Source: an uncultured Mollicutes bacterium
GTDB taxonomy: Bacteria; Bacillota_I; Bacilli_A; RFN20; CAG-288
Length of the DNA: 38,799 bases
Reading direction: 5' to 3'
NCBI GenBank assembly: GCA_900549915.1
Contig: URQF01000002.1
Span: 1 to 38,799, forward strand
Shown: positions 700 to 30,653 of the stretch, in pieces
Numbering within the stretch: position 1 is the stretch's first letter
Layout: the number at the start of each line of letters is the position of its first letter
Notes under the pieces: model-generated
Seen by the model: the letters and a program-made list of their open reading frames with translations, nothing else
What the model was told of the DNA's origin: nothing
Database searches by the model: none
Program-made: the position numbers and the translations under genes

Positions 700-2052
700 A
701 TGCTTATTTTTGACACAATTGTTGCTCTGGCAACGCCACCCTATAAGTCAGCGCTGGCTTTAATCCGAATCTCAGGTCCAAAGACAAAGGAAGTCTTGTC
801 CCATCTCATCAAGAAGAACAGGGATGAGGTAATTCCAAACCAAGCTTATTTCGTAAAGCTCTATAAAGACAAGAAAAATCCTGAAACAAAAATTGATGAA
901 GCCGTACTTGTCTTCTACAAAGGACCGAAGTCCTACACTGGATTTGACTCTGCTGATATTTCCATCCATGGTTCTAGGATTATTGCAGAAGAACTCAGGG
1001 ATGCTTGCTGCCTTTATGGAGCAAGAAGAGCAAAACAGGGAGAGTTCTCTGCCCAATCCTATTTCAATGGAAAAAGGGATTTACTGAAAGCAGAAGGTAT
1101 TAATGATCTCATTAATGCAAACAGCAAGGAAGCAAAGGACATCTCTAGGCGTACTCTAAGTGGTGAAAATACCAAAATCGTAGAAGACTTGAAAAATCGT
1201 TTTTTGGAATCCATCGCAGATTTGGAATACTACATTGAAAACCAGTACGATGAAAGTGAAGAAGACTATGAATCCTCTCTGAAAAATGTAAAAGAAAGAC
1301 TAGAGGAAGATGAAAAAGAACTCAGTCTTCTGATAGAGAAAACAAAGAAAGCCAATCAAAAATATTCTGGTTTCACTATCGCAATTGCCGGTGAACCAAA
1401 TGTTGGAAAATCAACTCTTTTAAATGCCATTGTCGGAGAAGACAAAGCTATTGTTTCGCCGATACCTGGAACAACAAGAGATGTCGTGGAAGGAGAAAAA
1501 GAAATCAACGGAATCAAGTTTTCCTTCAAGGATACCGCTGGAATACGAAAGTCAGATGATCCAATCGAGAATCTTGGAATCGAGCGTTCCTTCAAGACAA
1601 TCAAAGAAGCCGATCTTGTTCTTTTTGCTTCGGATAATGGATTCGATGACAGGAAGAAGAACAAAGACCTTCAGGATGTCTTAAAGGACAAGAAAGTCAT
1701 TCTTGTTGCAACAAAAAAAGATATCAGCAAATCAGAGAAAGATGCTGATATTTCCATCTGTTCCTTGAAAGATGATCTGACTCCTTTAAGGAACCTTAGG
1801 TTTGATTATCTAGATCTTAATCAGAAAGAAGATTCAAAATTCCTTGGTAAAAGAGAAGAAGAATTCCTTGAGAAAGTTCAGCAGAACGTAAGAGATACAC
1901 TGACAGCAAGGGAGACTAAGGATGTCGATGTCATCTGTGACACTTTACGTAGGTCTGTGTCTCTCCTGAATGAACTTGAGGGAAACAACCAAAATAAGAC
2001 AAGGGAAGATATCTATCAGACATTATTCAGCAAATTCTGTTTAGGAAAATAG
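700..2052 (+). CDS. mnmE: tRNA modification GTPase MnmE (TrmE)
   Basis: The N-terminus has the RISGP motif. G-domain motifs are GEPNVGKSTLLN, TTRD and DTAG, and the protein ends in CLGK. Eleven in-frame AGG codons are present and no internal ATG. AGG at 1075..1077 falls in NGK-x-DL, where homologues usually carry Met/Ile. Confidence 0.95.
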   Translation: MLIFDTIVALATPPYKSALALIRISGPKTKEVLSHLIKKNRDEVIPNQAYFVKLYKDKKNPETKIDEAVLVFYKGPKSYTGFDSADISIHGSRIIAEELRDACCLYGARRAKQGEFSAQSYFNGKRDLLKAEGINDLINANSKEAKDISRRTLSGENTKIVEDLKNRFLESIADLEYYIENQYDESEEDYESSLKNVKERLEEDEKELSLLIEKTKKANQKYSGFTIAIAGEPNVGKSTLLNAIVGEDKAIVSPIPGTTRDVVEGEKEINGIKFSFKDTAGIRKSDDPIENLGIERSFKTIKEADLVLFASDNGFDDRKKNKDLQDVLKDKKVILVATKKDISKSEKDADISICSLKDDLTPLRNLRFDYLDLNQKEDSKFLGKREEEFLEKVQQNVRDTLTARETKDVDVICDTLRRSVSLLNELEGNNQNKTREDIYQTLFSKFCLGK

Positions 2053-2053
2053 A

Positions 2054-2836
2054 ATGAGAATCATTGATACACATTGTCATCTTGATGATGACAAGCTCTA
2101 TAATATTTCAAAAGATGTTGTAAATAGAGCGAAAGAAGCAGGTGTTATTTATCTTTTTAATACAGCGGATTCCTTGCCATCCTTTGAACGGGTGTTGAAG
2201 CTTGAGGAAAGCTTCCAAGGAACCTGCTATTCGGTCCTTGGAATTCATCCGGAATTCGCTTTGGAAAGTGATGATTATTTCTTTGCTGCCTACAAAGAAA
2301 GGGAAGAGAGAAAGAATCAAATAAAAGCAATTGGTGAAATTGGATTAGACTATCACTATTCCAAAGATGAAACAGTGGTCTGTAAACAGAAGCAAAGATT
2401 CATCGAGCAGATTCGATTAGCTAAAAAGTGGAATCTTCCGATTGTTATTCATTCCCGAGATGCGGATTATGATACGTTCCAGATTATCAAAGAAGAGAAA
2501 CCGGAAAGCATCGATCTTCACTGCTATTCTGGAAGTTCAGAACTATTAGATGAATACTTGAGATTACCTGTCAAGATGCACATTGGAATCGGTGGAGTAT
2601 CCACTTTCAAGAATGCTAAGACAATCCAGAGAGTCATCAAAGAGCACGATATCTCTCTTTTCCTAAGTGAAACCGATTGTCCTTATCTTGCTCCGACCCC
2701 TCATCGCGGAGAAACCAATGAACCCTGTTATCTGCCATTGATTATCAATCAAATAGCAAGGCTAAAAGAAAAAGACGTAGAAGAAACAGCAGAACAGATC
2801 TATCAGAACGGAGCGACATTCTATGGAAGGAAATAG
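2054..2836 (+). CDS. tatD: TatD-family metal-dependent hydrolase/DNase (YabD-like)
   Basis: Motifs IDTHCHL, GEIGLDYHY, HSRDA, DLHCYSG and ETDCPYLAPTPHRGE (this Arg is CGC). The gene sits in the Firmicutes-typical order tatD-rnmV-ksgA. Confidence 0.9.
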   Translation: MRIIDTHCHLDDDKLYNISKDVVNRAKEAGVIYLFNTADSLPSFERVLKLEESFQGTCYSVLGIHPEFALESDDYFFAAYKEREERKNQIKAIGEIGLDYHYSKDETVVCKQKQRFIEQIRLAKKWNLPIVIHSRDADYDTFQIIKEEKPESIDLHCYSGSSELLDEYLRLPVKMHIGIGGVSTFKNAKTIQRVIKEHDISLFLSETDCPYLAPTPHRGETNEPCYLPLIINQIARLKEKDVEETAEQIYQNGATFYGRK

Positions 2837-3395
2837 GACAGAAAAAGAATGGATGGAACGGGAAAACCGGCGTTACATCTATATCTGTGAAGGAGCAACG
2901 GATGAAGACAAGCTAAGGAAGCTTGGCTGTCTGTTTGTAGTCAAAACCGGAGGGAAGTTTATCAAGAAAGATATTATTTCTTTTCTTCAGCTCTGCTACA
3001 AGGTCCGGGAACTTGTCATTATTACAGATCCGGATGGTCCAGGAAGAGATATCCAGAACTATATTGAAGAAAAAGTCGGTCCCTGCCATGTCATCGAAGC
3101 AAAGAAAGCAGATGCCATTAAAAAGGGAAAAGTCGGTATTGCGCAGAGGGAAAGGGAAGACCTCAAGAAGCTTCTTCGTCCTTATATCCGGCATGACATC
3201 ACAGTCGACGAGAATCTTTCCTTTGAAGATGAGACCTTCGAAGAACTTGGATTGACGGGGGCTGGAAGCAAAGCAAAAAGAAGGAAACTTGTCGAAAAAT
3301 ACCATTTGATCTATACATCCAGCAAGAATGTGGAAGATGCCAGGTTAAGGCTCTGCAAGACAAGAGAAGAACTAAGGGAGGATATTCAAGGATGA
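2823..3395 (+). CDS. rnmV: Ribonuclease M5 (TOPRIM domain, 5S rRNA maturase)
   Basis: TOPRIM motifs ICEGATDEDKL and IITDPDGPG. The stop is TGA at 3393..3395, overlapping the rsmA ATG (ATGA). An alternative in-frame ATG at 2853 gives an N-terminus closer to homologues. Confidence 0.85.
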   Translation: MEGNRTEKEWMERENRRYIYICEGATDEDKLRKLGCLFVVKTGGKFIKKDIISFLQLCYKVRELVIITDPDGPGRDIQNYIEEKVGPCHVIEAKKADAIKKGKVGIAQREREDLKKLLRPYIRHDITVDENLSFEDETFEELGLTGAGSKAKRRKLVEKYHLIYTSSKNVEDARLRLCKTREELREDIQG

Positions 3396-4207
3396 CAGAA
3401 CAGGGAAGAATTCAATCCTTACTGGATACGTATGGACTCTCTCCGAAGAAATCCTTCGGTCAGAATTTTTTAATCAACGAAGGAATCCTGAACCGGATTG
3501 TCAAAGGAAGGAACGTAGATTCCTTTGATACTGTCATTGAAATAGGTCCTGGCTTAGGTTCTAGGACTACCCGCATCCAACCATTAGCAAAGAAGCTAAT
3601 CTGTGTTGATGCAGACCGGGACAGGGTTGCTGTTCTAAAAGACTTATTCAAAGATAAAGAGAATACAACCATCATCAACTCTGATTTCCTTCGTTTTGAT
3701 CCAGATACCTGTTCAAAGAAAGAATCCCGTCTTAGGATGGGAAACCTTCCATACAACATTACTTCCGAACTTTTAAACTACAGGCTTGAAAAAGGATTCC
3801 AAAGTGCAGGAGTCATGGTGCAGAAAGAAGTCGCTGATAAACTGATTTATGAGCCGGATAAGAAAACAGATACTCCTCTAGGCGCTTATCTTAAAAGGAC
3901 AAGTGAGGTCAATGTTCTGACTTTTGTGGATCGTTCTTGTTTTAATCCGGTTCCAAAAGTCGACTCTGCTTTTATCCGGATTGACCATAAGAAAGATGTT
4001 ACTATCCGTGCTTTATCCGTTCTGACAGCTCTCTTCCGGGATCCAAACAAAACGAGGAACAACTGTCTCAAGAATGTCTATGGTAAAGATTTCCCGCTTT
4101 GCCTCTCGGAAGATACTAGAAATAGGCTCTCCTACCGGGCACGGCAATTAACAGCTGATGAACTAGAAAAGATTTGCTTAGACATCGACCATCATATCGT
4201 ACGATAA
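3392..4207 (+). CDS. rsmA: 16S rRNA (adenine1518/1519-N6)-dimethyltransferase RsmA/KsgA
   Basis: Motifs FGQNFL, EIGPGLGS-x-T (x is AGG at 3563..3565) and GNLPYNI. Confidence 0.92.
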   Translation: MTEQGRIQSLLDTYGLSPKKSFGQNFLINEGILNRIVKGRNVDSFDTVIEIGPGLGSRTTRIQPLAKKLICVDADRDRVAVLKDLFKDKENTTIINSDFLRFDPDTCSKKESRLRMGNLPYNITSELLNYRLEKGFQSAGVMVQKEVADKLIYEPDKKTDTPLGAYLKRTSEVNVLTFVDRSCFNPVPKVDSAFIRIDHKKDVTIRALSVLTALFRDPNKTRNNCLKNVYGKDFPLCLSEDTRNRLSYRARQLTADELEKICLDIDHHIVR

Positions 4208-4212
4208 TCCGT

Positions 4213-4248
4213 AAACAGGATTAGAGAAAAACTCTGACCCTGTTTTTT
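4213..4248 (+). terminator. Rho-independent terminator between the convergent rsmA and the minus-strand small ORF
   Basis: Arms aaacagg-att-agag and ctct-gac-cctgttt form an interrupted stem around an aaaaa loop, followed by a T run (to 4248). Confidence 0.5.
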
Positions 4249-4573
4249 ATTTCCGCCCCAGCAAGAAATCAGTCAAAGAAATAACTTCAATCTTATTCCC
4301 CTTAACGAAAAGCTCTCTCTTGTCTTCTTTCGTTACAATATAAAGCTTATATTTTCCGTTTTCCTTTTCGTTTAATCGTAAAAGTTGACTCACTTCTCTA
4401 TCAAAGGTTTCTTGTTTTTCCATTGAATAGCATGCCTGAACAGCAACATTTTCTTCTGTTTTGTCTATCATACTTTCTGCTTTTTGCGTTTTTTGGTCAA
4501 CACATTGACCGTTTTTATCTTTTTTTGTTAATTGTATTGACCGTATTATAAAAAAACAGATGCGTATATTCAT
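4247..4573 (-). CDS. Hypothetical small protein (start uncertain)
   Basis: The ORF-track frame is 4247..4735, but its first 127 nt overlap the permease 3' end in another frame. I trimmed it to the first ATG downstream of the permease stop. No recognisable motif and only a weak RBS. Confidence 0.3.
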   Translation of the reverse strand: MNIRICFFIIRSIQLTKKDKNGQCVDQKTQKAESMIDKTEENVAVQACYSMEKQETFDREVSQLLRLNEKENGKYKLYIVTKEDKRELFVKGNKIEVISLTDFLLGRK

Positions 4574-4608
4574 AGCTTCTATAGCTAAGAATACTTCAAA
4601 AATAGTTT

Positions 4609-5934
4609 TTAGTATGGTAGATAATTCAACACTGTCAACATGGAAAGAAGAGTCGGAATACAGATTGGAGCACAGTATTTTATAAAGGTAAGGTAGTTCC
4701 TTTTGATTTCCTGTTTTTTCAATAGATTCCTCCACCTAAGGCCCGCCAAGGCTCCAATCGGAGTGAAGAACGCAGCAACATTGGAAGCAATAATAGAGGC
4801 ATAGATGGCATTCGTCTGTGCTCCAGTAAGAAGAGTAGAGTAGAAAACAGCCCTAGGAATATTGTTAATCAGATTCGCGGTTAATAATCCGCTTAAACCA
4901 TAGGAAAAAACTTGGTTTGTACTTTGCAGTGCTTGGCTGATATGAAGACTCACACCTGTTTCATTAATAGCAAGGACAAGAACAAACCTAGATAAAACAA
5001 AAGAAATCAGGTTATAAGGAATTCGTTTGAGAGTAGGAACGATATGGTTCTCTTTTGTTACCAAGGCATAAACAAGACTGAAGATTAAAAGGGATAAAGC
5101 AAAGCAGAGAGCAATCAACCACCTAGGCCAATTACAGAAGGAAGAGATAGAAAGAAGGATCGTTGCCCCGCAAAGATGAATCAAACCAACAATTGTCGGA
5201 AACTTCTTCAGTTGAATGGATTGAGAATCATCCTGATAAAGGAGTGGATCCTTTAAGTTCTTATGGAAGATAATCAATAACCTGAGTAAGGAAACAAGGC
5301 CGCCGACAATTGTCGGAACACTCCTTTTCTCAAAATAAGTAAAGAACGAAATGTTCTCGTAAGAAGCCAGATAGATATTGGTTGGATTACCAATGATCAG
5401 TAGACTCGACCAAGTATTGGCAGCAACAAATTCCCTGATAAGGTAAGGAAGAGGAGAAACCTTGCATCGTTTGCAGAAATAACAAAGGAAGGGAGTAAAG
5501 GTAAGAATAATGATGTCATTGGAAGTAAAGACAGTCAGAACAGAAATCAAAAGATAAAGACAAAGGAACAGAGAATACTGGTTTTTTCTAAATCTCTTTG
5601 CAAAGCTTTCTGCCAGGAAAGAAAAGAATCCTTGTTCATCCAGGAAAATAGAGAGAATAGTCCTAGAAAGGAAGAGCACAAGAATCTTCAATGGATTGAT
5701 TCCGCTATCTGAAGTAAAGGATGAGATGACTTCCTTCCTATCTACACACTGGCATGCGAGTAGAAGAATGGCGCCAAGAAGAGTGACCATCCAGAAAGTC
5801 GATAAATGTAGCTTCCCTAGTTTAATGGAAGGAAAGAAGAGAGCAGTTACTAGGAAAAGTAAAATCGTTATGCAGGCAATGGATAAGCTCAGAACCATAT
5901 CATAAAAATTATAAGTACTTCCTTTTCCTAGCAA
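4609..5934 (-). CDS. ArsB/NhaD-superfamily (ion transporter superfamily) permease
   Basis: Polytopic membrane protein with the GNPTNIYLAS motif typical of ArsB/NhaD/CitMHS-type permeases. AGG codons at 4729..4731 and 4735..4737 lie in a hydrophobic segment (GL-x-W-x-NLL). Confidence 0.6.
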   Translation of the reverse strand: MLGKGSTYNFYDMVLSLSIACITILLFLVTALFFPSIKLGKLHLSTFWMVTLLGAILLLACQCVDRKEVISSFTSDSGINPLKILVLFLSRTILSIFLDEQGFFSFLAESFAKRFRKNQYSLFLCLYLLISVLTVFTSNDIIILTFTPFLCYFCKRCKVSPLPYLIREFVAANTWSSLLIIGNPTNIYLASYENISFFTYFEKRSVPTIVGGLVSLLRLLIIFHKNLKDPLLYQDDSQSIQLKKFPTIVGLIHLCGATILLSISSFCNWPRWLIALCFALSLLIFSLVYALVTKENHIVPTLKRIPYNLISFVLSRFVLVLAINETGVSLHISQALQSTNQVFSYGLSGLLTANLINNIPRAVFYSTLLTGAQTNAIYASIIASNVAAFFTPIGALAGLRWRNLLKKQEIKRNYLTFIKYCAPICIPTLLSMLTVLNYLPY

Positions 5935-6129
5935 TTCTGAAAACGCCTACATCGAAAAACAATGATGTCAAAGCAATACGAAATGTAGTTTTTTTCCAGC
6001 AAACACGCTCCTTAAAAACGCTATCTTGCTTGTTTTCTAATGTAGAAGGCAAAATCCGTTTTTCTTATTAACTCTAGGCGTTACAATGAATGGAAGCCAT
6101 TATCCGGCATCATAAACAGGTAATAAACG

Positions 6130-8334
6130 ATGAAAAAAAGCACACTGTCCATTCTTCTTTTCTTATCACTGCTACCTTTAGCAGGATGCGAAAAGACAAA
6201 TCGACCTTCACAAACAGAAACGCCTACCGTTTCTGCCACAGAGGCAAAAGCTGAAAAGATTTTATATATCGATAATTATCCGCTCACTGCTTATTACCAA
6301 TATGAATTGCTCGACTTATCGGATCTTGTCGTTGCTTCTCTTACTTATGTCAATGGTAAGCCGGTCGGAGAAAAAGAAATCATTACGGATTATCGAATTA
6401 CAGATGAAGAAAAGAATGTCATCCAAGATAAAAAGAGGCTAACAGAAACCGGTAACTATAACTACACAATCTCAAAAGAAGGATACACATCTTGTACTCT
6501 TTCTATTGAAGTCTATCCATCTACGGATTTCAAACAGACTCTAGGAATCACCTCTTATCCAAAAACGGGATATAAAATCGGTGAGACGTTCTCCCCAGAT
6601 GGGCTTTTGATGACTCTGAAAACGCATAGGAAGACAGAAGAAGGCGCAAAAGATTTTGCTGTTGCGGTCACAGACTATACAAGGACCATCGACGGAGAAG
6701 AGGCCAAAAACTATGTTTTCAGCGATTATAAGATGCATACCTTAAAAATCACTGTGGATGGCTACGCAGGTCCTATCAGTGTGAATATCTCCCTATCAGC
6801 AACTTCTGAAAACAACAAATTTGAAAAGAATTCATATTCTGATGACTCCGTGAGTTGGAAAGATAGTACATCAAAAATGAAATTGTCCATTTCTTCTGGA
6901 AAAGAAGAAAACGGAACACCAAGCACAAAGACTTTATATACTTCCGATGAGGTCAAGTTGAAGTATACAAGGGCAGACTATAGCCAAGCAAATATCTATA
7001 ACTGGCACTACATGCCATCCAAAGGAAACGTGCCATTGCTTGTCATACCAATTGTCATGCCGGGGTATGAAAACGATGCAACAAATGAAACATGGAAAAG
7101 AATCAACACCTGCTTCTTTGGAGACTCTTCCGATACCACTTTCGAGTCGCTTCGATCCTATTACTATAAATCTAGTTTTGGTCAGCTCAATCTGACAGGT
7201 GGCGTCACTGGATACGTCAACGCATCCGAGCTAGCTCCTTCTAGGAACACAGAGAATATTTCCAGTGATGACACTGCAAAATTAGCAGATCTTGCCTGCA
7301 GCTGGGCTAGGAAAACCTATAATCTAAACGCAAAAGATTTTGATACCGATCAAGACGGGACCATCGATGGCAGGTGGATTATTTATCTTCATGATATCGA
7401 TTCCAATAGCAACTACTGGGGCTTTACTGCCACCACAGGAAAAGTCGGCACGAAAGAGAATCCCTGCGTTAATAGCTATGGGTGGGCAGGAACACAGTTT
7501 TTGGATGACTACTGCTACACCTATCAGCATCAGGATATCAACGATGCCCATGTCATCATTCACGAAACAGGACATAGGTTAGGCCTTACCGATTACTACT
7601 CCTATGGAAAGCAAACCTATTCTCCTCTTGGCGGAAAAGATAGGATGGACAACAATGTCTTTGATCACAATCCCTATTCGAAGAGGTTGCTGGGCTGGGT
7701 GACTCCAAACGTAGTTACAGGGTCTGTCGATGATAGGAGCTTATACACTTCCTCTCATAAAGAGGATTCAAGGGTAGTCATTCCTTCGAACGATTATGTT
7801 CCAGAGATTGATTCAGACGGAAAACTCCTCTTCAATCCATTTGATGAATATCTAGTAATTGACTGCTTTGCAAACCGCAACAGGAACACAGAAGGATGGG
7901 AGATCTATCATAGGGATCCATTGAATGGACAAGGCGGACGAGTCTTCCATGTTGATTCCAGACTGATGGATTCTGATACGGGGAAGCTGACAGATGATCC
8001 AAGTTCTCTTTTCACTTTACAGAAAACAATAACAGGGTTAAAGGAACAGCCACACGCCTTACATCCGATTTCTAATACAGAATCCGGTGAACGCGCTGAA
8101 CACAACTATGGGCTCCCCAAGAGTGCAGATGCCTATGATGAAATCCGTCTTATTTCTGGATGGGGTGTTGATATTCCGCTTTCTCAAACTCACACTCAGT
8201 CCTTAGATGATCTCTTCAAAAAGAATCAATCATTCTCTCTGTCTTCCTTCCCAAACAAGTTCAACGGAAACGGATTCAACTCTGGTTCCTCTTGTTCCTA
8301 TAAAGTGACATTTGTTGACGTGCCATCCAACTAA
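6130..8334 (+). CDS. Secreted lipoprotein, M6 (immune inhibitor A)-like zinc metalloprotease
   Basis: Signal peptide with lipobox LPLAGC. Zinc site HETGH-x-LGLTDYY, where x is AGG at 7576..7578. The long N-terminal region looks like beta-rich, Ig-like domains. Confidence 0.7.
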   Translation: MKKSTLSILLFLSLLPLAGCEKTNRPSQTETPTVSATEAKAEKILYIDNYPLTAYYQYELLDLSDLVVASLTYVNGKPVGEKEIITDYRITDEEKNVIQDKKRLTETGNYNYTISKEGYTSCTLSIEVYPSTDFKQTLGITSYPKTGYKIGETFSPDGLLMTLKTHRKTEEGAKDFAVAVTDYTRTIDGEEAKNYVFSDYKMHTLKITVDGYAGPISVNISLSATSENNKFEKNSYSDDSVSWKDSTSKMKLSISSGKEENGTPSTKTLYTSDEVKLKYTRADYSQANIYNWHYMPSKGNVPLLVIPIVMPGYENDATNETWKRINTCFFGDSSDTTFESLRSYYYKSSFGQLNLTGGVTGYVNASELAPSRNTENISSDDTAKLADLACSWARKTYNLNAKDFDTDQDGTIDGRWIIYLHDIDSNSNYWGFTATTGKVGTKENPCVNSYGWAGTQFLDDYCYTYQHQDINDAHVIIHETGHRLGLTDYYSYGKQTYSPLGGKDRMDNNVFDHNPYSKRLLGWVTPNVVTGSVDDRSLYTSSHKEDSRVVIPSNDYVPEIDSDGKLLFNPFDEYLVIDCFANRNRNTEGWEIYHRDPLNGQGGRVFHVDSRLMDSDTGKLTDDPSSLFTLQKTITGLKEQPHALHPISNTESGERAEHNYGLPKSADAYDEIRLISGWGVDIPLSQTHTQSLDDLFKKNQSFSLSSFPNKFNGNGFNSGSSCSYKVTFVDVPSN

Positions 8335-8336
8335 GC

Positions 8337-8599
8337 TAAGACTGAGGCCGCCAGGCCAAGAGCTAGCCTAGATGTTCAAGGTCAATCGGACCCTTGAAAT
8401 CCAGAAGCTAACCGACTACACTAAGAATGATTTCAATAATTGCTGCTAGGTCTGCCAGTATGTCTAAGACATACCTTAAGACTGATGCAGCTTTTTTAAA
8501 TTTCACCCTGGCTTCGCCTTGATGGCCTGGCGGTCGTCAGTATAAGACCTCATCTGGATTAATCCTCCATTTCCGGTCTCACCTAATATGGGAACGGAA
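8337..8599 (+). repeat. Copy B of the 264-bp conserved non-coding element
   Basis: It starts 2 nt after the protease stop codon (8332..8334) and aligns end to end with 172..435. Homology ends at cggaa (8599), 26 nt from the integrase stop. Confidence 0.85.
8442..8497 (+). terminator. Intrinsic terminator of the metalloprotease gene (inside repeat copy B)
   Basis: Stem gctgc (8442..8446) / gcagc (8487..8491) with the inner gtatgtc/gacatac hairpin, followed by T6 (8492..8497). Confidence 0.55.
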
Positions 8600-8625
8600 A
8601 TACAGAAATTTCCAACTATTTATTT

Positions 8626-9564
8626 TTAAACACAAAAATTTTTTCTTCCTTCGATACCTTTCCTCCTATTCTCGATGCATCGTTTTTTCTCATCATTGCT
8701 AGGGTGAACATATAAATCCAAAGTAATGGAAATATTGGAATGGCCAAGTATAGAACTAACTGCTTTGTAATTTGAATTACATTCAATGCAGCGGGCCGCA
8801 AAGGTATGTCGTAATCCATGGAACTTGATTGGATTAATGCCAAGACCAGTTAAAAGCTTTTTTAAATGGTTTCGATAGACTCTTGGCTCTAATGGTTTGC
8901 TTGAATTCGTAAGAAGGTAAAAAGAATCATTGACTATTTTCTTCAATGGTTTCCTTATTTTCAAAAGAGATGATGTTAGTGGAATGCTTCGCTTAGACTG
9001 ATTCGTCTTTGGTTCACTGACAATCAGTTCTGTCTTCTTTTTTTTTTCGTTAAGATAAATTCTTTCTATGGTACGATTCACGGATATTTCGTTGCAATCC
9101 AGCGAGATATCTTTCCACATCAATCCACAGATTTCTCCGATTCTCATTCCTGTTTGAAGACAGATGAGAATTCCAAGATTCTCAAAAGAAAAGTTTTCTT
9201 GCAAATAAGAAAGAAGTTTCCGTTCATCCTTTTTGGATAGGACTTGGATGTTCTTTTTTTCTTCTTTCAATGGAACCCAGATTTCGTGAACATCAATTTT
9301 CCTCCTATGATTTTTCTGTGCAAAACGTAGAATCCTTTTCAAAACAACCACTGTATCTTTCATCCTCTTCCTACTCAGACCATCGTTCCTTTTGTTTTTC
9401 ACAAATTCGTTTATCTCATATTCTTCCAATTGCTTTCTTTCCTTAAAGGTTGGTAGTATATGTTTTTGTATGATTGCTCGATAAATACATAGAGTCGACA
9501 TTTTAACAAACTGCTTTTTATATTCTAAAAAAGAATTTGTGACAACTTCAAAACTATCTGCCAT
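8626..9564 (-). CDS. Tyrosine recombinase / phage-type integrase
   Basis: Catalytic motifs TGMRIGE (Arg is AGA), HGLRHTFA (Arg is CGA) and LGHSNISITLDLYVH. A strong RBS (AAAGGAGG) lies upstream of the ATG. Several AGG codons occur in the N-terminal SAM-like domain. Confidence 0.9.
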   Translation of the reverse strand: MADSFEVVTNSFLEYKKQFVKMSTLCIYRAIIQKHILPTFKERKQLEEYEINEFVKNKRNDGLSRKRMKDTVVVLKRILRFAQKNHRRKIDVHEIWVPLKEEKKNIQVLSKKDERKLLSYLQENFSFENLGILICLQTGMRIGEICGLMWKDISLDCNEISVNRTIERIYLNEKKKKTELIVSEPKTNQSKRSIPLTSSLLKIRKPLKKIVNDSFYLLTNSSKPLEPRVYRNHLKKLLTGLGINPIKFHGLRHTFAARCIECNSNYKAVSSILGHSNISITLDLYVHPSNDEKKRCIENRRKGIEGRKNFCV

Positions 9565-9637
9565 AGTTTATTCCTCCTTTTCTGGCAGTTTTGATTGTAG
9601 TCTTTCTCGAATTCTCATTATGAAATACGATGGTGGT

Positions 9638-10519
9638 TCACATCCCTTTGCTTAGAATGTATTTAATATCCTCTATCCTGCTTTCTCTATCTCCGATAAC
9701 AGCAAGCTTACCAGATTCAATCGTAGAAAGCCTACGTTCTGCTTTCCTATTCAGACGATCAAGAATCAAATTATCAATAGGACCAAAGAGAGAACATGGC
9801 TTACTTATCGCATAGTAATAATGAGTATGAGTACCTTGTTCAAGTCCTACACGATTGATACGATCCTTAGACTGCAGCCTATAAGTCAAATTGAACCCGT
9901 ACTCAAGATAGATAGCATCATGGCAAACCCTATGAAGAGAAACAGACTCTGCTAATGTATTTGGATTTGTAATCAACACCTGCGTTCCTGAGTACTTGAA
10001 ATCGTTGATCTTATTGTCTCTGAGGAATACATCATCTCTTCCACAGATTGTTGTACAGCGAATGCCGAAAGAAGTAAGAGCTGAAGAAAGATAATCAATC
10101 GTATCAATAAAAAGACACCAGACAAGAACTTTTCTTCCTTGGGATACCAAAGTCTTGATTTTATCAATTGTTGCTTGCCTCTTACTTGCAATCTTTACTT
10201 GTTCTAGAATCTGATTCAGCTCATCTTCTGGAAAGGAGGACTCCTCCAAATTCAGGTGGCCGAAATCCTGTTTGTTGTCATCATCATATAGTCTATCCAT
10301 CTCTTCCATCGATATTCTTCTTTTTAAGAGCAGGGGATTGGAAGAAGCTTGAATCAACCGAATATACTTAAGCAAAGGATTCTGGATATACTTCCATATC
10401 AGCTGATAGAGTTTTCCTTCTCCTTCCGTAGGTGTAACACAAAGAGAATCATAATCATCTGGATCAGGAAGAGGAACATTGAGTTCTTTTTTCGTTGTCC
10501 GTACAAAATAGGGAAGCAA
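9638..10519 (-). pseudogene. SNF2-family helicase, C-terminal half only (5'-truncated)
   Basis: The helicase C-terminal domain is present (KVLVWCLF, QVLITNPNTLAESVSL, LQSKDRINRVG with both Arg as CGT). No SNF2 N-terminal ATPase/DExH part is present, and no open frame continues upstream of 10519. Confidence 0.6.
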
Positions 10520-10657
10520 GGAATTGATTGTCTTTTCTGCTACAGAATATGAAATTGCCAGAAAAGCCCTTATTTATCGATACAAAAATCGAAAAATGTA
10601 GGAGTAATGTAGGAGTAGACGGAATTTAACAAAAAGAAGGAGCGTTGTATTGCTCCT

Positions 10658-10975
10658 TCAAAATGGCATTCCTGATGTATCCATTCCAGCCTCAATCTTT
10701 CGAAGAATACTGTAGTACGACCCTTTACAGATGAACTTATTTCCATCTGATGTTGTTATGGAACAATAGTCTCCACTAGTCATTGATAGATTTCCGCTTT
10801 TGGTTGAATAAATCTTGTCTGGTATTCTATCTACGAACATCACACAAAATGGGTTTATTTTTCTTTTGCAGAATATAAGAGAAGGTTCGACGATGCCTAT
10901 TAGTGCGTTCCCAGTACCTTCATTTATTCTTTCGAGAACATAGTCTGCCAGTTCTAAATCTACGAAATTTGTCAT
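10658..10975 (-). CDS. Hypothetical protein (105 aa)
   Basis: Clean ORF with no recognisable motif. Confidence 0.35.
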   Translation of the reverse strand: MTNFVDLELADYVLERINEGTGNALIGIVEPSLIFCKRKINPFCVMFVDRIPDKIYSTKSGNLSMTSGDYCSITTSDGNKFICKGSYYSILRKIEAGMDTSGMPF

Positions 10976-11114
10976 TCTGTTTACCTCAAAAATAAAAAGA
11001 GAAGGGCTGATATATGCACGAGGTGTATATAGCCATGGAACTAACCATATACATTTTTAATTTCAACCCTTCCATTAATGAGATTGTTTTTATTGCGAGT
11101 AAAAAAAAGAGCGT

Positions 11115-11147
11115 TGCCCGAGGCGGGATTCGAACCCGCACTGCTAG
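11115..11147 (-). tRNA. tRNA 3' fragment only (T-arm plus 3' acceptor strand); probable att-site scar
   Basis: The minus strand reads GCGGG-TTCGAAT-CCCGC-CTCGGGC-A, followed by a T9 run. No complementary 5' acceptor strand (GCCCGAG), D-arm or anticodon arm lies upstream. The acceptor with an A discriminator resembles Leu-type tRNAs, but the isotype cannot be determined. Confidence 0.6.
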
Positions 11148-11254
11148 AACCCATTGTTCACTCGCGGTGTCTCTTTCATTATAGAAGTTGCTTTATATGC
11201 GAACCTTACGTGCTGTCCATTAATTGTTTCATTACAGGAATAATTTGAATTTAT

Positions 11255-11299
11255 AAAAAAGAGAGTCCTTGTATCCTTTGCCGGGTATAAGAACTCTCC
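11255..11299 (-). terminator. Rho-independent terminator of the prophage late/lysis transcript
   Basis: On the minus strand, a long imperfect hairpin (gagagttcttatacc ... ggatacaaggactctc) is followed by TTTTTT (plus-strand A run at 11255..11260). Confidence 0.55.
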
Positions 11300-11332
11300 C
11301 TTATATAGAAAGGAGAAAATTGGAAATAATTA

Positions 11333-11653
11333 TCAATCTTTATGACAAATCGGAAGAGTCATGACTTTGTTATATAGTTCTGTCATAACTCCATTCTTAC
11401 CCAAGTTATGATAGGCATTGTACATGTTCTCATAGTTGAGTTTATCTGAATAGTTTATTTCACCGGCATCAAGATATTTGTAGCTCAACTGAAGGAGCTC
11501 ATTTCTCAATATTGCCTGGGTACCCTTCTTTTCAATCTCCATATCTTTCTTAAGACGTTTATGACGATTCAGCAGACCAGCGATTAAAGGAATAAGGGCA
11601 CTTTGCAGCACAATCGAAATAAGCGTGATGATATCATTTATGCTCCACTTCAT
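11333..11653 (-). CDS. Small membrane-anchored protein in the lysis cassette (holin-associated, function unknown)
   Basis: One N-terminal transmembrane helix followed by a helical domain (LYNKV, NLGKNG). It overlaps the holin 3' end by 20 nt. Confidence 0.45.
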   Translation of the reverse strand: MKWSINDIITLISIVLQSALIPLIAGLLNRHKRLKKDMEIEKKGTQAILRNELLQLSYKYLDAGEINYSDKLNYENMYNAYHNLGKNGVMTELYNKVMTLPICHKD

Positions 11654-12014
11654 CCTGATTGGAATCCTCTTTTTTCTTTTGTCCAGAATCTTTAGGGTTC
11701 AACTCGATGCAATCCTTTTTATGTTTGTTCCTGAACTCTATAACTTCTTCTTCTGTGATCTTTCCGTCGGCCAGCCTATTGAAAATATCATCAGCCATAC
11801 TAGCAAAACCAGTCCAGTTGTTGTTATACCAATAGGAAATGACTACCATTAAAACAAAGATGCCGAAAGACACATATTCGTAGATACTTCCGGAACCCCA
11901 GTATTTCTTACCGACCATGGATATGACATAATTAATGAGGGACAGGATGAGAAAAATCGTACGAAGGATAGTCCCCTTGTCTCTCATTTTGAATTTTTCG
12001 AAAAATGCTTTCAT
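11634..12014 (-). CDS. Phage holin (phi LC3/SPP1-like family)
   Basis: Two or three transmembrane segments, the YWYNNNWTGFASMAD motif (compare WWKNNSFT in this holin family) and a charged C-terminal tail. An AAAGGAG RBS is present. TAATG stop/start overlap with the upstream gene. Confidence 0.7.
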   Translation of the reverse strand: MKAFFEKFKMRDKGTILRTIFLILSLINYVISMVGKKYWGSGSIYEYVSFGIFVLMVVISYWYNNNWTGFASMADDIFNRLADGKITEEEVIEFRNKHKKDCIELNPKDSGQKKKEDSNQDEVEHK

Positions 12015-12556
12015 TATTGATTACTCCTTTGCTTGTCGACTATGGAAATATAGTATTTTCCGCCATCAGTTGCTGATCCTTCAAACCATGCATTATCATA
12101 CCAGTCATCGGCAAACGTATGTCCCTTCTTTTCCTTGATTACTTGATACCAATAACGTATGGCTGAAGGAATAGCAACAAGGAAAATAAAGAATGGGCCA
12201 AGAAGAGCATTTTGGAAGGAATGTCCTAATTCATGCATTCTTACTTCTTCCTCATAATCTTTTCCCATTCCGTTAGACACAAATATAAAGAATACTCCTT
12301 CTAATCCGCCCCAGTTATTTCCAAACTGATGGCATCTAACTTTATTCCTGTAATTGAATGAAACAGAATTCTTATCTCTCGGAAGAATAAATATACATAC
12401 AAATAGGTCGATTAGCAACCCAATGAATGAATATAAAATCCCCCATGTTAGATTCAAGACCCACCAGAGCCACATACGCTCAGATAAGAATTTAATCCAT
12501 CTCATTTCTATGGAATACAAAAACTTTCCTAATTTTGAACGATGATTCTTAATCAT
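12014..12556 (-). CDS. Polytopic membrane protein with a zincin HExxH motif (HELGH)
   Basis: Four predicted transmembrane segments with HELGH between them. A GAGGA RBS is present. It sits immediately upstream of the holin, where an endolysin would normally be expected. Confidence 0.5.
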   Translation of the reverse strand: MIKNHRSKLGKFLYSIEMRWIKFLSERMWLWWVLNLTWGILYSFIGLLIDLFVCIFILPRDKNSVSFNYRNKVRCHQFGNNWGGLEGVFFIFVSNGMGKDYEEEVRMHELGHSFQNALLGPFFIFLVAIPSAIRYWYQVIKEKKGHTFADDWYDNAWFEGSATDGGKYYISIVDKQRSNQ

Positions 12557-12567
12557 TTATTGTTCCT

Positions 12568-13005
12568 CTAAGATATATAAGGTAAAACAGTTATAGAAGG
12601 GCCTTCTAATTTATTTATCCTACTGCGTGCTTCCTTGCGTTTAGCAAGAATGTCTTTATATTCTTCTTTAGCTTTCGCGAATTCGACTTCGTCTTCAAGC
12701 TTCAATTCGTTTAGCTTTGCAATAACATAATCGGTAGATGAAAGGTAATTCTTATAAGACGCAATCTGGTTTGCTTTGTCGACCTTGTTTTTCTCATCCT
12801 CATGTATCTTTTCAACTATTTTCCCATCCTGATAGACGAAATAGGAATACGTAGGATGGCATGAAATCTTTGTCCATTGCTCGAAATCCATTCCGATGAC
12901 CGCATCTCCATCTTTTTCAGTAGGCGCATCATAGAATGGAACAACTTCAATTTCGTTTCCTTCTAAGATTCGGAAATATCGTACCTCTTTTTTTTCTTCT
13001 TTCAT
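12568..13005 (-). CDS. Tail-fibre assembly/chaperone-like protein (XkdW / Caudo_TAP-like pattern)
   Basis: I trimmed the start to the ATG at 13005, which gives a TAATG overlap with the fibre gene stop. The C-terminal YLSSTDYVIAKLNE...KEEY...RKEAR pattern resembles phage tail-fibre assembly proteins. Confidence 0.4.
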   Translation of the reverse strand: MKEEKKEVRYFRILEGNEIEVVPFYDAPTEKDGDAVIGMDFEQWTKISCHPTYSYFVYQDGKIVEKIHEDEKNKVDKANQIASYKNYLSSTDYVIAKLNELKLEDEVEFAKAKEEYKDILAKRKEARSRINKLEGPSITVLPYIS

Positions 13006-15056
13006 TACTGTAAGCCTCCAATTGCTAACCAATAGACGGGGCATGATTCGCTGCGTCGAAGCTGGAAAGTGAATGCTGTTCCGCTACGATATGAAGTGAT
13101 GACAGCTCCATTAGAATATGGTATACCCTGACTGCCCGTAACCATGTCTCTTGTCTGTAAAATAACTGCTGGGTACCACCAGAAGATCTTCGGATATGTA
13201 ACTTCCCAATCTGTTGTATCTCCATGAGCTCCAATGTATACGCCCCATTGAATAAGTAACTTGTCCATAACAATGTAACTTGATTTAGATGAAGTTGCAT
13301 TCATTATATCGGAAAATTCCTTTTCTGTAAGGAGCGATGCAAGCGAAAGGTTTCCGCTTCCAAGGATTGTATAGCCGTTGATGGTTCTGATGTTCGTGCC
13401 TGAGACAAGGGTTGCCTGCTTGCCGTTTAATGTTGTCTGCAAATTAGTAATCTGCGAAATAGAATGAGTATGGCTTGAATTTGCTTTTCCGTTTATCGTC
13501 GATTGCAAGTTAGCAATGTCACTTATTCCAAGAGTGTGTGCCTCGATTAACCCATTGGCATCAGTTCCAAGGACTTTCTTATTTTTGAGTGCTGATAGTA
13601 CTGGCGTAGTAGAGAAGGTCTTCTTCGCTGAAATAGTCTGTTCCGTGTTAGTTGTTACGTAAGAACCCTTAGGTTGATAGTTTACTGCAAGGTGATCAAT
13701 ATCAACATTCTGCCCAGTCTTAGAATATGCTAAGAAGGCAACACCACGCTCATTCATATCTCTCAGTGGGCCTATTACATCATTTTTATTGTATATAGAC
13801 CCGCTAGTAGTAACCTGTATTCCATTGTATATAGAAAAGCATGGCATTCTCATCTCCATTGCTTTGCCAACTTGAAAATCTTGATCATTCGAATTTACAT
13901 TTGGTTTGAACATTAAAGCAGATGTATAAATATCACCAGTATTACTATCGATTCGGCTTGTGAAAAGAGAACCTTTAGCTGTGCCGTCTAGACATCCAAA
14001 CCCGCCATCTAAATCGGTTCCATATTTCTCTTTGAATTTATTAGCTGCTTCTTCACTAGCTGTCTTAAGTTGACCGCTATATTCTCCAACTGAATTATTT
14101 GGGCCTATGAAATTTGCGAAGATAGCTCCACCAAAATTTTGTGGATCATTAGCATTAATGCCAGCAGACATTGCAGTGCCTAGGTCAACCATCTTATATC
14201 CAATGTCAGGGTTTGACTCGAGCGGATTTGTAGTATTATCGAATGTGGCAATCATGCGCCTTTCATGGATATCACCTCTGTCGATGCCAGTATACTGTAA
14301 CCCTTCAGAATTCCGGAAGAATATACCATATGATAAGTCATGTAATTCAGTTGGCATTTTGGTATCAAGATCTGTATAGATCTGTAAAAAATCTTGAGCC
14401 GTATATTTAGTCTGTTTATCTGTGCTAACTAAGTTAAAAGCATTTGTAGAATCATCAGCACTGGAAGCATGTTTAACACTTTTATCCTTATCTGCGGTAT
14501 TATCCACTTTTCCTAAACCAACATCACCTTTTGTAAGAGCTAAATTGATTTTCTTTCCTGAAGATTGGTTGGTCGTGAAACTATCGACATCCTTTCCATT
14601 TTTCTGAATTATGATTGTTCCATTCCCAATATCATCTGTGCGCGCAATTTCTCCACCTCTTGCACTTAACGAGGTGCGCTGAGAGACTCCTTTACTATCG
14701 GTCAGATCGAAGAAAAGGACTGCACCCTTCTCAGGCTGAGACCATACCATTGCTCCAGGTGTGGCGCTAGCACGGAATTGGAGGCGAGTTGTTCCTGCAA
14801 CCTGGTCGAACCGGAGCATTGTTCCGCTATTCGGGCCTTCCTTTCCGATAATCAGCTGTCCACCATTTGAAGTCTTAAAAATAGTCGTTGCTATCTCTTT
14901 ACCATTCGCATTAGGTGGCGCATTGAAAGTCTTAGCACCTGTAATAGTTTGAGTAGTATCAGTTAGAACAACTTTTCCCCATTCAGTCTCAGTCGGAAGT
15001 ATCCCCTGAATTTCATATGTCTTATTGCCTGTCTTTTTATACAATTTCTTCGCCAT
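13005..15056 (-). CDS. Tail fibre / receptor-binding protein
   Basis: Fibre motifs TQTITGAKTF and EQTISAKKTF. Repeated H-x-H...I-x-NLQ-x-T-x-NGK units (SSHTHSISQITNLQTTLNGK). I chose the start at MAKKLYK (15056) because GGAGG lies 7 nt upstream. Confidence 0.75.
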   Translation of the reverse strand: MAKKLYKKTGNKTYEIQGILPTETEWGKVVLTDTTQTITGAKTFNAPPNANGKEIATTIFKTSNGGQLIIGKEGPNSGTMLRFDQVAGTTRLQFRASATPGAMVWSQPEKGAVLFFDLTDSKGVSQRTSLSARGGEIARTDDIGNGTIIIQKNGKDVDSFTTNQSSGKKINLALTKGDVGLGKVDNTADKDKSVKHASSADDSTNAFNLVSTDKQTKYTAQDFLQIYTDLDTKMPTELHDLSYGIFFRNSEGLQYTGIDRGDIHERRMIATFDNTTNPLESNPDIGYKMVDLGTAMSAGINANDPQNFGGAIFANFIGPNNSVGEYSGQLKTASEEAANKFKEKYGTDLDGGFGCLDGTAKGSLFTSRIDSNTGDIYTSALMFKPNVNSNDQDFQVGKAMEMRMPCFSIYNGIQVTTSGSIYNKNDVIGPLRDMNERGVAFLAYSKTGQNVDIDHLAVNYQPKGSYVTTNTEQTISAKKTFSTTPVLSALKNKKVLGTDANGLIEAHTLGISDIANLQSTINGKANSSHTHSISQITNLQTTLNGKQATLVSGTNIRTINGYTILGSGNLSLASLLTEKEFSDIMNATSSKSSYIVMDKLLIQWGVYIGAHGDTTDWEVTYPKIFWWYPAVILQTRDMVTGSQGIPYSNGAVITSYRSGTAFTFQLRRSESCPVYWLAIGGLQ

Positions 15057-15134
15057 GTTTTCTCCCTCCAAAAGAAAATCGGCTCAGCCATCCTTCGTAA
15101 GACAGCCAAGCCGATAGAATCTAAATATAATTGA

Positions 15135-16715
15135 TTAGCCGATTAGGGCAAATCCACCAACAGCGAGATTATTGAGAGCTGCAGCAGACGTGCTGGCAGC
15201 AGAGACAAGGAATTGTCCAACTTTCTTGACGATACCTTGTCCATTTACCATAACGGCACTGTAGGCAGAATCAGTTCCAGCAGCACCACCAGAAAACTCT
15301 GTAGGAGTAACTGCAGTAGCCTTTCCATTAACAGTCTGACTAAGTTTATGGACTGCCGTCTGAGTGGCGGCAACCTTGCTATCGTCTGCAGCATAGTTGT
15401 CGCTAAGCTTAGTAACACCATAAGTATTCGTAGTAGCGTCTGGAATATTTGCAATGACAGTACCACCATCGTTGAGAGTAAGTGTCATTTTGACATTCTT
15501 ATTCGTCGCGTCATTCTCAAATGCAGCCTTGTTGACGAAGTTATTAGTGTTGGTGTCAGTCCATGGGACACTGACAGTCATTGCACCATTTGCATCAATG
15601 GAGACTCCATATGTCTTGCCACTAGTGGCACCGCCCTTAACTAATCCTAGTTTGGCATTGGTTGCGACTGGAATTGGTGCCTCAGTATTGTCAACTCCGG
15701 CTTTAACCGCATGCTTTGCATCATCCCAAGAGAGTGCAGCGGTGTTGTTATCAGGGACTGTAACTGTCTGTGTTGCATCACCAGCCTTACTTCCCTGAGC
15801 TGCTAAGGTAATGGTGTGTCCAGAAATGGACATCTTGTAGTAGGTATCTGTATCCTTATCCATCTCAGAATGGACAATATCAAAGTTGCCTGCTACTGTA
15901 CTAGCGCCAGAGGCGTTATAAATAGCAATATCTCCGGCATGAATTCCGGCAGGAAGAGTTTCACTAGATCCAGCAACAGGAGCAGTAAATTTATAAAAGT
16001 CTCCTTTGGAGAGATTAGCTGGAAGAGCTGTTGGCCAAGCAGTGAATGTACCTTTATATTCAACACCCGCTGCTTTTGCGGCAGCAATAGCCTTAGATAC
16101 AGCATGAGAAGTAGGAATAAGAGCTGCATCATCGCTGATGTCCTCATTCGAGATAGAATATCCAGAGTCCTTGACTGCATCAGTGCCATTTCCTAAGACA
16201 ATATGATTAGCTGGAAGTGCTCCGGGCCCAGTGACAATATGAGATAATGTCTCAGCGGCACCAACTGCCTTGATATGACCGTTTTCAATAGTCAGATCGT
16301 GGACAGTAACAGAATGGCCAGAAGCGGCATAGTCAGCAGAAGTAGGGGTGTAGCTAGGATGGACATATTTATTTGCTCCATCTTCAACATTTAAAGCTTT
16401 TAAGAGTTCAGCTTTTGTAATATCATCCTTAAGATCGACTCCAGCAATCTTACGCGTATTAGGGACATAGTTTGTAATGACCCAATCTTTTAAACTTCCA
16501 CCAGCGCCAGCACCAAGTCCTAACGCTGTATTAACTTCCTGAATCCAGTCAGATAAAAGTGTTCCACCGGTAAAAGAATCTTTGTCTGTGGATAGAGTAG
16601 GCTTTGTGATATAGACAGTATCAGCTCCTGAGAAGAAACTAATAGGGGTATAGACATTAGCCTCTCCCTGCACAGTATAATATTTCTTAATCCAGTCAGA
16701 ATTAAAAGTTCCCAT
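15135..16715 (-). CDS. Second tail-fibre-like structural protein (Ala/Gly/Thr-rich)
   Basis: The motif TNTYGVTKLSDNY...AATQTAVHKL is typical of phage fibre shafts. A strong RBS (AAAGGAGG) is present. By eye, the GC content is visibly higher than that of neighbouring genes. Confidence 0.6.
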   Translation of the reverse strand: MGTFNSDWIKKYYTVQGEANVYTPISFFSGADTVYITKPTLSTDKDSFTGGTLLSDWIQEVNTALGLGAGAGGSLKDWVITNYVPNTRKIAGVDLKDDITKAELLKALNVEDGANKYVHPSYTPTSADYAASGHSVTVHDLTIENGHIKAVGAAETLSHIVTGPGALPANHIVLGNGTDAVKDSGYSISNEDISDDAALIPTSHAVSKAIAAAKAAGVEYKGTFTAWPTALPANLSKGDFYKFTAPVAGSSETLPAGIHAGDIAIYNASGASTVAGNFDIVHSEMDKDTDTYYKMSISGHTITLAAQGSKAGDATQTVTVPDNNTAALSWDDAKHAVKAGVDNTEAPIPVATNAKLGLVKGGATSGKTYGVSIDANGAMTVSVPWTDTNTNNFVNKAAFENDATNKNVKMTLTLNDGGTVIANIPDATTNTYGVTKLSDNYAADDSKVAATQTAVHKLSQTVNGKATAVTPTEFSGGAAGTDSAYSAVMVNGQGIVKKVGQFLVSAASTSAAALNNLAVGGFALIG

Positions 16716-16731
16716 AGTTAAATATCCTCCT

Positions 16732-17139
16732 TTAAGAACTTAATGAAACCTTTTCTGTAAGTTTCGTTTCTTCCTTCGCTTTATAAATGGCAGGTGAAGA
16801 AATGACTGCTTTCGAACTCAGAGACGGCTTATAAACTGATTTTGCCATGCTCATCTTGGTGATAGTAGGCTCCTTTGGCTCATCAGTAACTGCAACAGTC
16901 TTAGTCTGTTCACTTAGCTGACTATTAAACTTGTCATATTTGGCATTCTCTGGCTCATTAATGAGAACATAGTTGTACCGTTCTTTTTTGTATCCAGAGT
17001 TAATAGTATTATGAATAATGTCACCGTTGGCATCTTTCAGAGCGGTTAGAGCTTTTTCTGCGCCCTTTACAACAATCTCGTATTCTGCGGAAGGATCTTC
17101 AGGATCCACGCAGACTAGTTTTTTCAATTCGTTTGCCAT
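16732..17139 (-). CDS. Hypothetical phage protein
   Basis: ORF in the tail module. I chose the start at MANELKK (GGAGG lies 10 nt upstream). The ORF-track start at 17157 is also possible. Confidence 0.45.
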   Translation of the reverse strand: MANELKKLVCVDPEDPSAEYEIVVKGAEKALTALKDANGDIIHNTINSGYKKERYNYVLINEPENAKYDKFNSQLSEQTKTVAVTDEPKEPTITKMSMAKSVYKPSLSSKAVISSPAIYKAKEETKLTEKVSLSS

Positions 17140-17504
17140 CGTTCCCAATCCTCCCATAGAAATTTTGATTCAGGGCCACTATCAGCACACCGGACAATAT
17201 GGGAAAGCTTAAGTTTGCTTACCTCTTCCGTAATGCGATTGTCAAGTGCCTTTTCTTGCTCTTTGGCTCTATCCGACTCAGCTTCTAACTGCTTGGATGA
17301 GGCAAAGCCTGTATGCCCAGAATGCTCAAAATCAAGATTTAAAAGCTTAGAGTGATCTGCATCTATGTATGATTCTATACTCATCTCAAGACACAGATCG
17401 TAATAATTGTTTACATTGTCAGAACTAGAGAAATAATCGTCGCCATTATGATTATTGCTATTAAATCCAATTTCATAGGAGCTAGAGAAATAATTATTAG
17501 ACAT
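17124..17504 (-). CDS. Hypothetical phage structural protein
   Basis: ORF in the tail module. The segment DHSKLLNLDFEHSGHTGFA resembles motifs found in fibre/baseplate-associated proteins. Confidence 0.45.
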   Translation of the reverse strand: MSNNYFSSSYEIGFNSNNHNGDDYFSSSDNVNNYYDLCLEMSIESYIDADHSKLLNLDFEHSGHTGFASSKQLEAESDRAKEQEKALDNRITEEVSKLKLSHIVRCADSGPESKFLWEDWERWQTN

Positions 17505-17834
17505 CTATTTTCTCCTTTCTAAAATTGTAAGAGACTGTTTATAGGCAACTGTCTTAACAGTCCCATCAATATAATTTACGCGAATAGAATAATCTGTAAT
17601 GCAAGGAGGCAAACTGGCAGTTGTTTCACTATCCATTTTGAATAGATAACCTTTATCCACTTTGCCATTAACAAGCGTGCGGTTATCATCGAGGAAAGGT
17701 TCCTCAATTCCTAGTTCTGAGCAGATAAATTCCAGACTTTTAATTTTATCCAGACCGAGTCGAACTCTAATTCTTATAGCGAACGTATCACCCTGGACAC
17801 ATGTTAGCTGGGTTCTTCCAGATAATCGTATCAT
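17505..17834 (-). CDS. Hypothetical phage protein
   Basis: I moved the start to MIRLSG because GAAGGAGG lies 5 nt upstream. The ORF-track start falls inside that RBS. Confidence 0.45.
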   Translation of the reverse strand: MIRLSGRTQLTCVQGDTFAIRIRVRLGLDKIKSLEFICSELGIEEPFLDDNRTLVNGKVDKGYLFKMDSETTASLPPCITDYSIRVNYIDGTVKTVAYKQSLTILERRK

Positions 17835-17867
17835 TTTGTCCTCCTTCTGCATAATAAATAAAATAAG

Positions 17868-18230: not shown

Positions 18231-18282
18231 AATTTCCTCCATAAGAAAAGGGCCACCGAATGCCTCAGTGACCCTAACAGAT

Positions 18283-19809: not shown

Positions 19810-19838
19810 GGTAATTCTCCCGATAATATCTTACCACT

Positions 19839-26060: not shown

Positions 26061-26072
26061 ACAATTTTCCTC

Positions 26073-30648: not shown

Positions 30649-30653
30649 AGATT

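Follow-up and report, generated by a model that had tools for sequence, protein, structure and literature searches.

What does the codon AGG specify in the genes of this locus, and how can a gene for a conserved tRNA-modifying enzyme do without any ATG after its start codon? The window, by which we mean the whole 38,799-nt stretch of DNA analyzed here, carries mnmE (tRNA U34 modification GTPase) at 700..2052 on the + strand, with 450 sense codons, or 451 when the TAG stop is counted. The initial annotation had described this gene as having no internal ATG and 11 in-frame AGG codons, and both counts, along with all 11 positions given for AGG, were borne out: the sole in-frame ATG is the start codon at 700. 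The other Arg-family codons comprised six AGA, four CGT, and two CGA, with no CGC or CGG. The product matched TrmE_N (PF10396), MMR_HSR1 (PF01926), and MnmE_helical (PF12631) above the Pfam cut-offs, the solved MnmE structures 1xzp, 3geh, and 3gee were matched along its full length, and its C-terminus, FCLGK, agrees with the CxGK motif of MnmE/TrmE GTPases. In 99% of orthologues, the Met start falls at the same alignment position as the start of this ORF. With the TrmE_N, G, and helical domains and the CxGK motif all present, the ORF encodes the tRNA modification GTPase MnmE/TrmE. MnmE belongs to the enzyme responsible for modifying U34 of tRNA-Arg(UCU), and this modification affects the discrimination between AGA and AGG.

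The ATG trinucleotide occurred 24 times in the +1 frame of mnmE and once in frame 0; the trinucleotide as such is not avoided, and the depletion of ATG is thus specific to the reading frame. A Poisson model over 450 codons was set up using the codon usage of standard-code relatives from the same genus, which have 231-262 AUG and 6-54 AGG per 10,000 codons (Shulgina & Eddy, eLife 2021; PMC8629427, table). Under this usage, the probability of finding no internal ATG was 8e-6 to 3e-5, and that of finding at least 11 AGG was at most 5e-5. Among 113 outgroup MnmE proteins, the median number of internal Met was 9 (range 1-14). The ATG and AGG pattern of mnmE is real, and chance is not its cause.

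To compare the AGG positions with orthologous residues, the MnmE protein with AGG masked as X was aligned with 113 standard-code orthologues (52-65% identity); a 117-homologue alignment comprised these 113 outgroup proteins and four proteins from the same clade. Arg was found at 0 of the 11 AGG columns in the 113 outgroup proteins. Three columns were dominated by Met (79, 95, and 94% for codons 93, 126, and 435, respectively): codon 93 (976..978; M89 P16 L5, no R), codon 126 (1075..1077; M107 I5 F1), which is also Met in Thermotoga maritima MnmE (1xzp), and codon 435 (2002..2004; M106 G5). At codon 435, the T. maritima protein has Arg opposite in a pairwise alignment, against Met in 106 of the 113 closer orthologues. 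Codon 367 (1798..1800; I64 M45) fell on an Ile/Met column, and four codons fell on aliphatic columns, namely codon 41 (820..822; V61 A22 I18 T6 P2, no R), codon 100 (997..999; L95 I12 M6), codon 318 (1651..1653; I78 L10 M9), and codon 364 (1789..1791; I62 Y22 L14). The remaining three columns were variable or polar and are uninformative when taken singly: codon 150 (1147..1149; T61 S29 N14 A5 L3, variable, no R), codon 404 (1909..1911), and codon 418 (1951..1953; variable, V43 T17 L13 Q10 K10). The column of codon 404 depended on the alignment, with I99 L13 in one and D/Y/E/S in the other; outgroup Arg was absent from both, and the two R seen there came from same-clade proteins. All 11 codons lie on the + strand. 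No AGG column was conserved as Arg or Lys, the pattern that, together with Met-free orthologues, the initial annotation had held to speak against a reassignment. Among the closest database matches, at most one internal Met was found only in four proteins of the same recoded clade; few internal Met were also found in P0120 and P0112 (1 and 3, respectively), both of which belong to the 113 outgroup proteins. In the reverse direction, three of the four internal columns with a Met majority are AGG in mnmE of the window.

Relatives of the window were searched for by scanning one genome per GTDB species, and three close ones were identified: the metagenome-assembled genome HGM10888 (MnmE 99% identical; DNA 96.4% identical over 8 kb), Bacillales bacterium UBA4682 (MnmE 95%; DNA 81-88%), and UBA784 (MnmE 86%; DNA 76%). 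The window is syntenic with all three over 8-10 kb. Sister mnmE genes carry one or two internal ATG, at sites that are AGG in the window: UBA4682 has ATG at codons 41 and 126, and HGM10888 has it at codon 367. In UBA784, codon 404 is ATT and codon 418 is AAG. UBA4682 and UBA784 both appear by name in the list of eight genomes from the three-species UBA7642 clade in which AGG was reported to encode Met (Shulgina & Eddy, eLife 2021; PMC8629427, Fig. 3 source data). A 2026 preprint names the genus Enterosoma, and in it KACI recovers AGG-to-Met again (bioRxiv 10.64898/2026.04.02.715157). Judged from one marker gene and 8-10 kb of synteny, the window, which comes from a gut bacterium, is placed inside this three-species reassigned UBA7642/Enterosoma clade of uncultivated Bacilli.

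These comparisons bear on the simplest alternative, in which the standard code applies, AGG encodes Arg, and MnmE is truly a Met-free and Arg-rich variant. The ORFs are intact under table 11, and the four closest database proteins show R at the AGG columns, both of which agree with that alternative; the four R-bearing proteins, however, belong to the same clade and were themselves translated with the standard code. Against it stand the absence of Arg from every AGG column in the outgroup and the low chance probabilities given above, both at most 5e-5. Moreover, the columns occupied by AGA and CGN are those at which Arg is conserved: as the initial annotation had proposed, Arg is still supplied by AGA, CGT, and CGA at conserved sites, amino acids 23, 109, 110, 260, 283, 385, and 417 being R in 108-117 of the 117 homologues. 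Under the standard code, the AGG and ATG exchanges among sister genes would be radical substitutions between R and M at conserved sites of proteins that are 95-99% identical.

A second gene outside mnmE was informative in the same respect. Genes for an ABC transporter, comprising a MalK-type ATPase, a permease, and a 408-aa putative binding protein, are located at 32896..38725 on the - strand and contain 49 AGG and 16 internal ATG. In the ATPase (32896-35604), five AGG codons align with Met residues of the solved Thermococcus litoralis MalK structure 1g29, in the motifs LR-M-IAGLE, PH-M-TVY, FL-M-DEPLSNLD, VR-M-RAELK, and VEA-M-T. The orthologue columns, the sister swaps, and the MalK comparison effectively refute the standard-code reading, to which we assign practically no chance of being correct.

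A reassignment of AGG to another hydrophobic residue, Ile or Leu, was also considered, since columns 41, 100, 318, and 364 are mainly Ile, Leu, or Val in the outgroup. In a Codetta-style calculation, the log-odds sum over the 11 AGG columns was +2.6 bits for Met, -11.3 for Ile, and -15.8 for Leu, so that mnmE alone favors Met over Ile by about 14 bits; Arg was outside the four best-scoring amino acids for AGG, and 12 control codons all recovered their standard amino acid in the same calculation. Further points against Ile or Leu are that swaps within the clade are between AGG and ATG, that five AGG stand at the Met motifs of MalK and three at Met columns of a phage tail protein described below, and that the published genome-wide inference, with more than 2,200 Pfam columns per genome, and a tRNA with Met identity elements both point to Met (PMC8629427). 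We therefore regard assignment to Ile or Leu as extremely improbable, hardly more credible than the standard code.

Codon usage across the host genes of the window was in accordance with AGG as a Met codon. Per 10,000 codons, these genes contain 245 AGG, 76 internal ATG, 119 CGT, and 72 AGA; the published values for the recoded clade are 209-235 AGG, 59-69 AUG, 134-193 CGU, and 59-74 AGA (PMC8629427). AGG thus makes up about 2.4% of codons, the ratio of AGG to ATG is about 3:1, and CGT is the preferred Arg codon. AGG-rich and ATG-poor genes of this host type at 2054..10519, assigned from codon usage and Pfam, comprise tatD, toprim/DUF4093, ksgA, a CitMHS transporter, a 734-aa HExxH protein, an integrase, and an SNF2-type helicase fragment. 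The proposal of the initial annotation that AGG is the dominant Met codon was supported by the orthologue columns, the AGG and ATG swaps, the MalK comparison, and this codon usage.

Its further proposal, that the replacement of ATG by AGG is gene-dependent, was not supported. The ATG:AGG split over 11 host genes was 37:119 and homogeneous (chi-square p = 0.69), and a permutation test of heterogeneity with a ROK-like ORF added (12 genes) gave p = 0.27. A special purging of ATG from mnmE would be suggested by its 0 ATG among 11 internal Met codons, against 11 AGG (nominal p ~0.04), as gene-dependence would be by the six ATG and four AGG of the ROK-like ORF (nominal p = 0.015); neither value survives correction for about 12 tests. 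The sister mnmE genes, with their one or two internal ATG at AGG sites, look as expected under neutral drift. Gene-dependent replacement among host genes is accordingly highly unlikely, and the absence of internal ATG from mnmE is explained by sampling, given that ATG has a share of about 24% genome-wide, and not by a gene-specific process. The true heterogeneity in the window is between the host genes and a prophage-derived block described below.

Two ORFs deserve separate mention. The 734-aa lipoprotein-like protein (6130-8334, + strand) contains HETGH-(AGG)-LGL, in which a recoded Met comes directly after an HExxH zinc site. Under standard translation it had no Pfam or PHROG match, and its earlier label as an M6 protease was unconfirmed at Pfam E<=0.001; its family may be hidden by standard-code translation. 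The ROK-like ORF (31591-32892, - strand), which could be of host or of foreign origin, is flanked by the phage block and the ABC transporter operon, and its label as a ROK kinase was likewise unconfirmed, with no Pfam match at E<=0.001 under standard translation.

Taken on sequence evidence, the clade very probably reads AGG as Met. Neutral substitutions from ATG to AGG would have made AGG the majority Met codon in the clade, with ATG kept as the start codon and as a minority internal Met codon, and with Arg encoded by CGN (mainly CGT) and AGA. The mnmE product would then be a normal protein with 12 Met, one from the ATG start and 11 from AGG. In the published description of the clade, AGG is decoded by a tRNA-CCU derived from an Arg tRNA; its gene lies next to tRNA-Arg(CCG), at the locus where outgroups have an Arg tRNA-CCU, and AGA is still read by the Arg tRNA-UCU (PMC8629427). 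This tRNA-CCU has gained the Met identity elements A73, G2:C71, and C3:G70 and has lost A20, for which reason it is presumably charged by MetRS; the reassignment itself was inferred computationally there, from more than 2,200 Pfam columns per genome (PMC8629427). ARAGORN detected no tRNA gene in the window, nor in any of 20 related loci, which places the tRNA-CCU gene outside the window. A search against Rfam gave no match in the window at gathering thresholds, and for positions 1-700 nothing credible at E<=1.

A modified form of this reading is ambiguous decoding, in which tRNA-CCU would read AGG mainly as Met, but wobble pairing of the U34-modified tRNA-Arg(UCU) would also allow an appreciable extent of reading as Arg. 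The possibility was raised by Shulgina & Eddy (PMC8629427). It is in keeping with mnmE, whose product aids U34 modification, being intact and conserved here, and with AGA still being used at 72 per 10,000 codons, because of which tRNA-Arg(UCU) must be present. On the other side, Arg usage has moved from AGA toward CGT, in agreement with a lower demand for tRNA-UCU, and substantial misincorporation of Arg would be costly, since AGG fills about 2.4% of codon positions, some of them invariant Met sites within catalytic motifs. Appreciable ambiguity is therefore unlikely, if less so than the alternatives above, and low-level misreading of AGG as Arg is possible.

The block that departs from host usage is a strain-specific, prophage-derived tail/lysis block at ~10548..30863 on the - strand, identified using Pfam and PHROGs. 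Its genes encode an SPP1-type holin, tail-fibre repeat proteins, a 2073-aa tail endopeptidase, and a tape measure protein, and no head genes were found among its ORFs (~10548-30863) with Pfam and PHROGs. Per 10,000 codons, it contains 150 ATG, 43 AGG, and 107 AGA, against 76, 245, and 72 in the host genes (Fisher p = 7e-21), where the block figures refer to a 17-ORF set that includes the ROK-like ORF. With 30 AGG and 105 ATG, AGG accounts for 22% of Met codons in the block (ATG 78%) and for 76% in the host genes (ATG 24%), and AGA is the main Arg codon of the block. Homology to strains of the same species ends at 10547, within an SNF2-type helicase gene, and the block is for this reason regarded as strain-specific. 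The helicase fragment (9638-10519, - strand) corresponds to the C-terminal 293 aa of an SNF2/ResIII-type helicase, which in strain L117 (4952-7630) has a length of 892 aa. A mis-called start was considered for the 293-aa ORF and ruled out by the L117 gene; the ORF is a true truncation at the block junction. The integrase beside the fragment (8626-9564) has host-like codon usage and is also present in UBA4682.

The meaning of AGG in the block was assessed using the tail gene, relatives of which were obtained by an exhaustive representative search and an IMG/VR profile scan. In its conserved N-terminal part there are three AGG codons, at which 42, 24, and 45 of 50 homologues, respectively, have Met. 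In its C-terminal part, the closest homologue has I, E, M, and M opposite the four AGG codons, so that Arg stands opposite no AGG; conserved Arg columns use AGA or CGN. In 11 related IMG/VR phages, all 11 AGG codons of the same tail gene stand at Arg/Lys columns, and the usage of these phages per 10,000 codons is 108-290 ATG, 8-40 AGG, and 73-191 AGA. A tblastn search of INPHARED with the tail protein returned matches only at <=37% identity. The tape measure protein contains eight AGG, several of them within hydrophobic stretches; it had no close relative in IMG/VR, and its protein database matches were only 20-27% identical. From these columns and codon counts, the block is predicted to read AGG as Met as well, while still preferring ATG. 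It appears to come from an otherwise standard-code phage family, to have lost AGG as an Arg codon, and to have gained some AGG as Met codons, remaining far from host usage. As a separate observation, a tandem 84-nt repeat, the copies of which are 75% identical, is present at 23394-23561 inside the gene for the 2073-aa tail protein.

A dispersed non-coding repeat of ~280-330 nt was also found, with copies 89-95% identical, at 115-474 and 8334-8615 of the window. Further copies are located in L003 (18747-19016), in L008 (9471-9738), and in 14 metagenome loci (e.g., L126, L145, L164, and L131); scanning metagenomes with an 18-mer gave 80 loci, but the full repeat was present only in these 14, the remainder being chance matches. 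Within the clade, the copies occur in unrelated intergenic contexts: upstream of mnmE, beside the integrase, and near genes for Dus/DeoR, a metallophosphatase, and a Na/H exchanger. RNAalifold predicted a long closing helix and several hairpins, a short segment of the repeat being hypervariable, and the repeat had no Rfam match. It could be a structured RNA or a MITE-like element. An intrinsic terminator had been guessed at the end of the repeat and was not called by a simple scanner. In two related strains with 99% identical MnmE, a gene for a 336-aa reverse transcriptase (RVT_1) is present (L008, 17616-18626; L009, 7916-8926) at the place occupied in the window by the repeat copy and the integrase, which indicates a variable hotspot downstream of the 734-aa gene.

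The reassignment of AGG to Met in this clade was already published in 2021, as one of five reassignments of arginine codons that were the first sense-codon changes reported in bacteria (PMC8629427). Since the window belongs to the published clade and has matching codon usage, its code is a rediscovery. The two descriptions have in common AGG on Met and non-polar columns, an AGG:ATG ratio of about 3:1, a preference for CGT, and the interchange of AGG and ATG; there is no essential difference, the window being another strain or assembly of the clade, and the example gene was uridylate kinase in the earlier report and is mnmE here (PMC8629427). AGG has been assigned to the same amino acid in an organellar genome, with an independent origin, in a 2019 report as cited in PMC8629427. 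As to the code, all that is added to the 2021 report is that the raw sequence of further genes independently confirms it. For annotation, the code matters in that standard-code translation puts Arg at about 2.4% of positions, catalytic motifs included, and yields seemingly Met-free proteins such as database entries P0001-P0004. The prophage-derived block and the dispersed ~330-nt repeat were the only items not found in the literature.

[quoted passage not shown] They and the block both place AGG as Met; the block is without a tRNA-CCU. The two assemblies are strongly ameliorated, with 174-177 AGG and 95-99 AUG per 10,000 codons, in contrast to the block with 43 AGG, 150 ATG, and 107 AGA. The block also differs from them in being integrated, strain-specific, and ATG-dominant, in lacking head genes, and in having IMG/VR relatives that use AGG as Arg. 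Because two phages with AGG as Met were already reported, the block is a refinement and not a new principle.

As an integrated and incompletely ameliorated element, the block ties its phage family directly to the recoded host and represents an intermediate stage of adaptation. It may record the passage of a phage lineage, derived from a standard-code family, into a host in which AGG means Met, a reading on which we are evenly balanced. Alternatively, the phage may keep AGG rare by moving between hosts of both codes. If the lineage did cross, the purging of AGG as an Arg codon would have come early and was probably obligatory, and the drift toward AGG as a Met codon would be slow. The block would then indicate in which direction, and roughly at what pace, mobile elements cross a sense-codon barrier.
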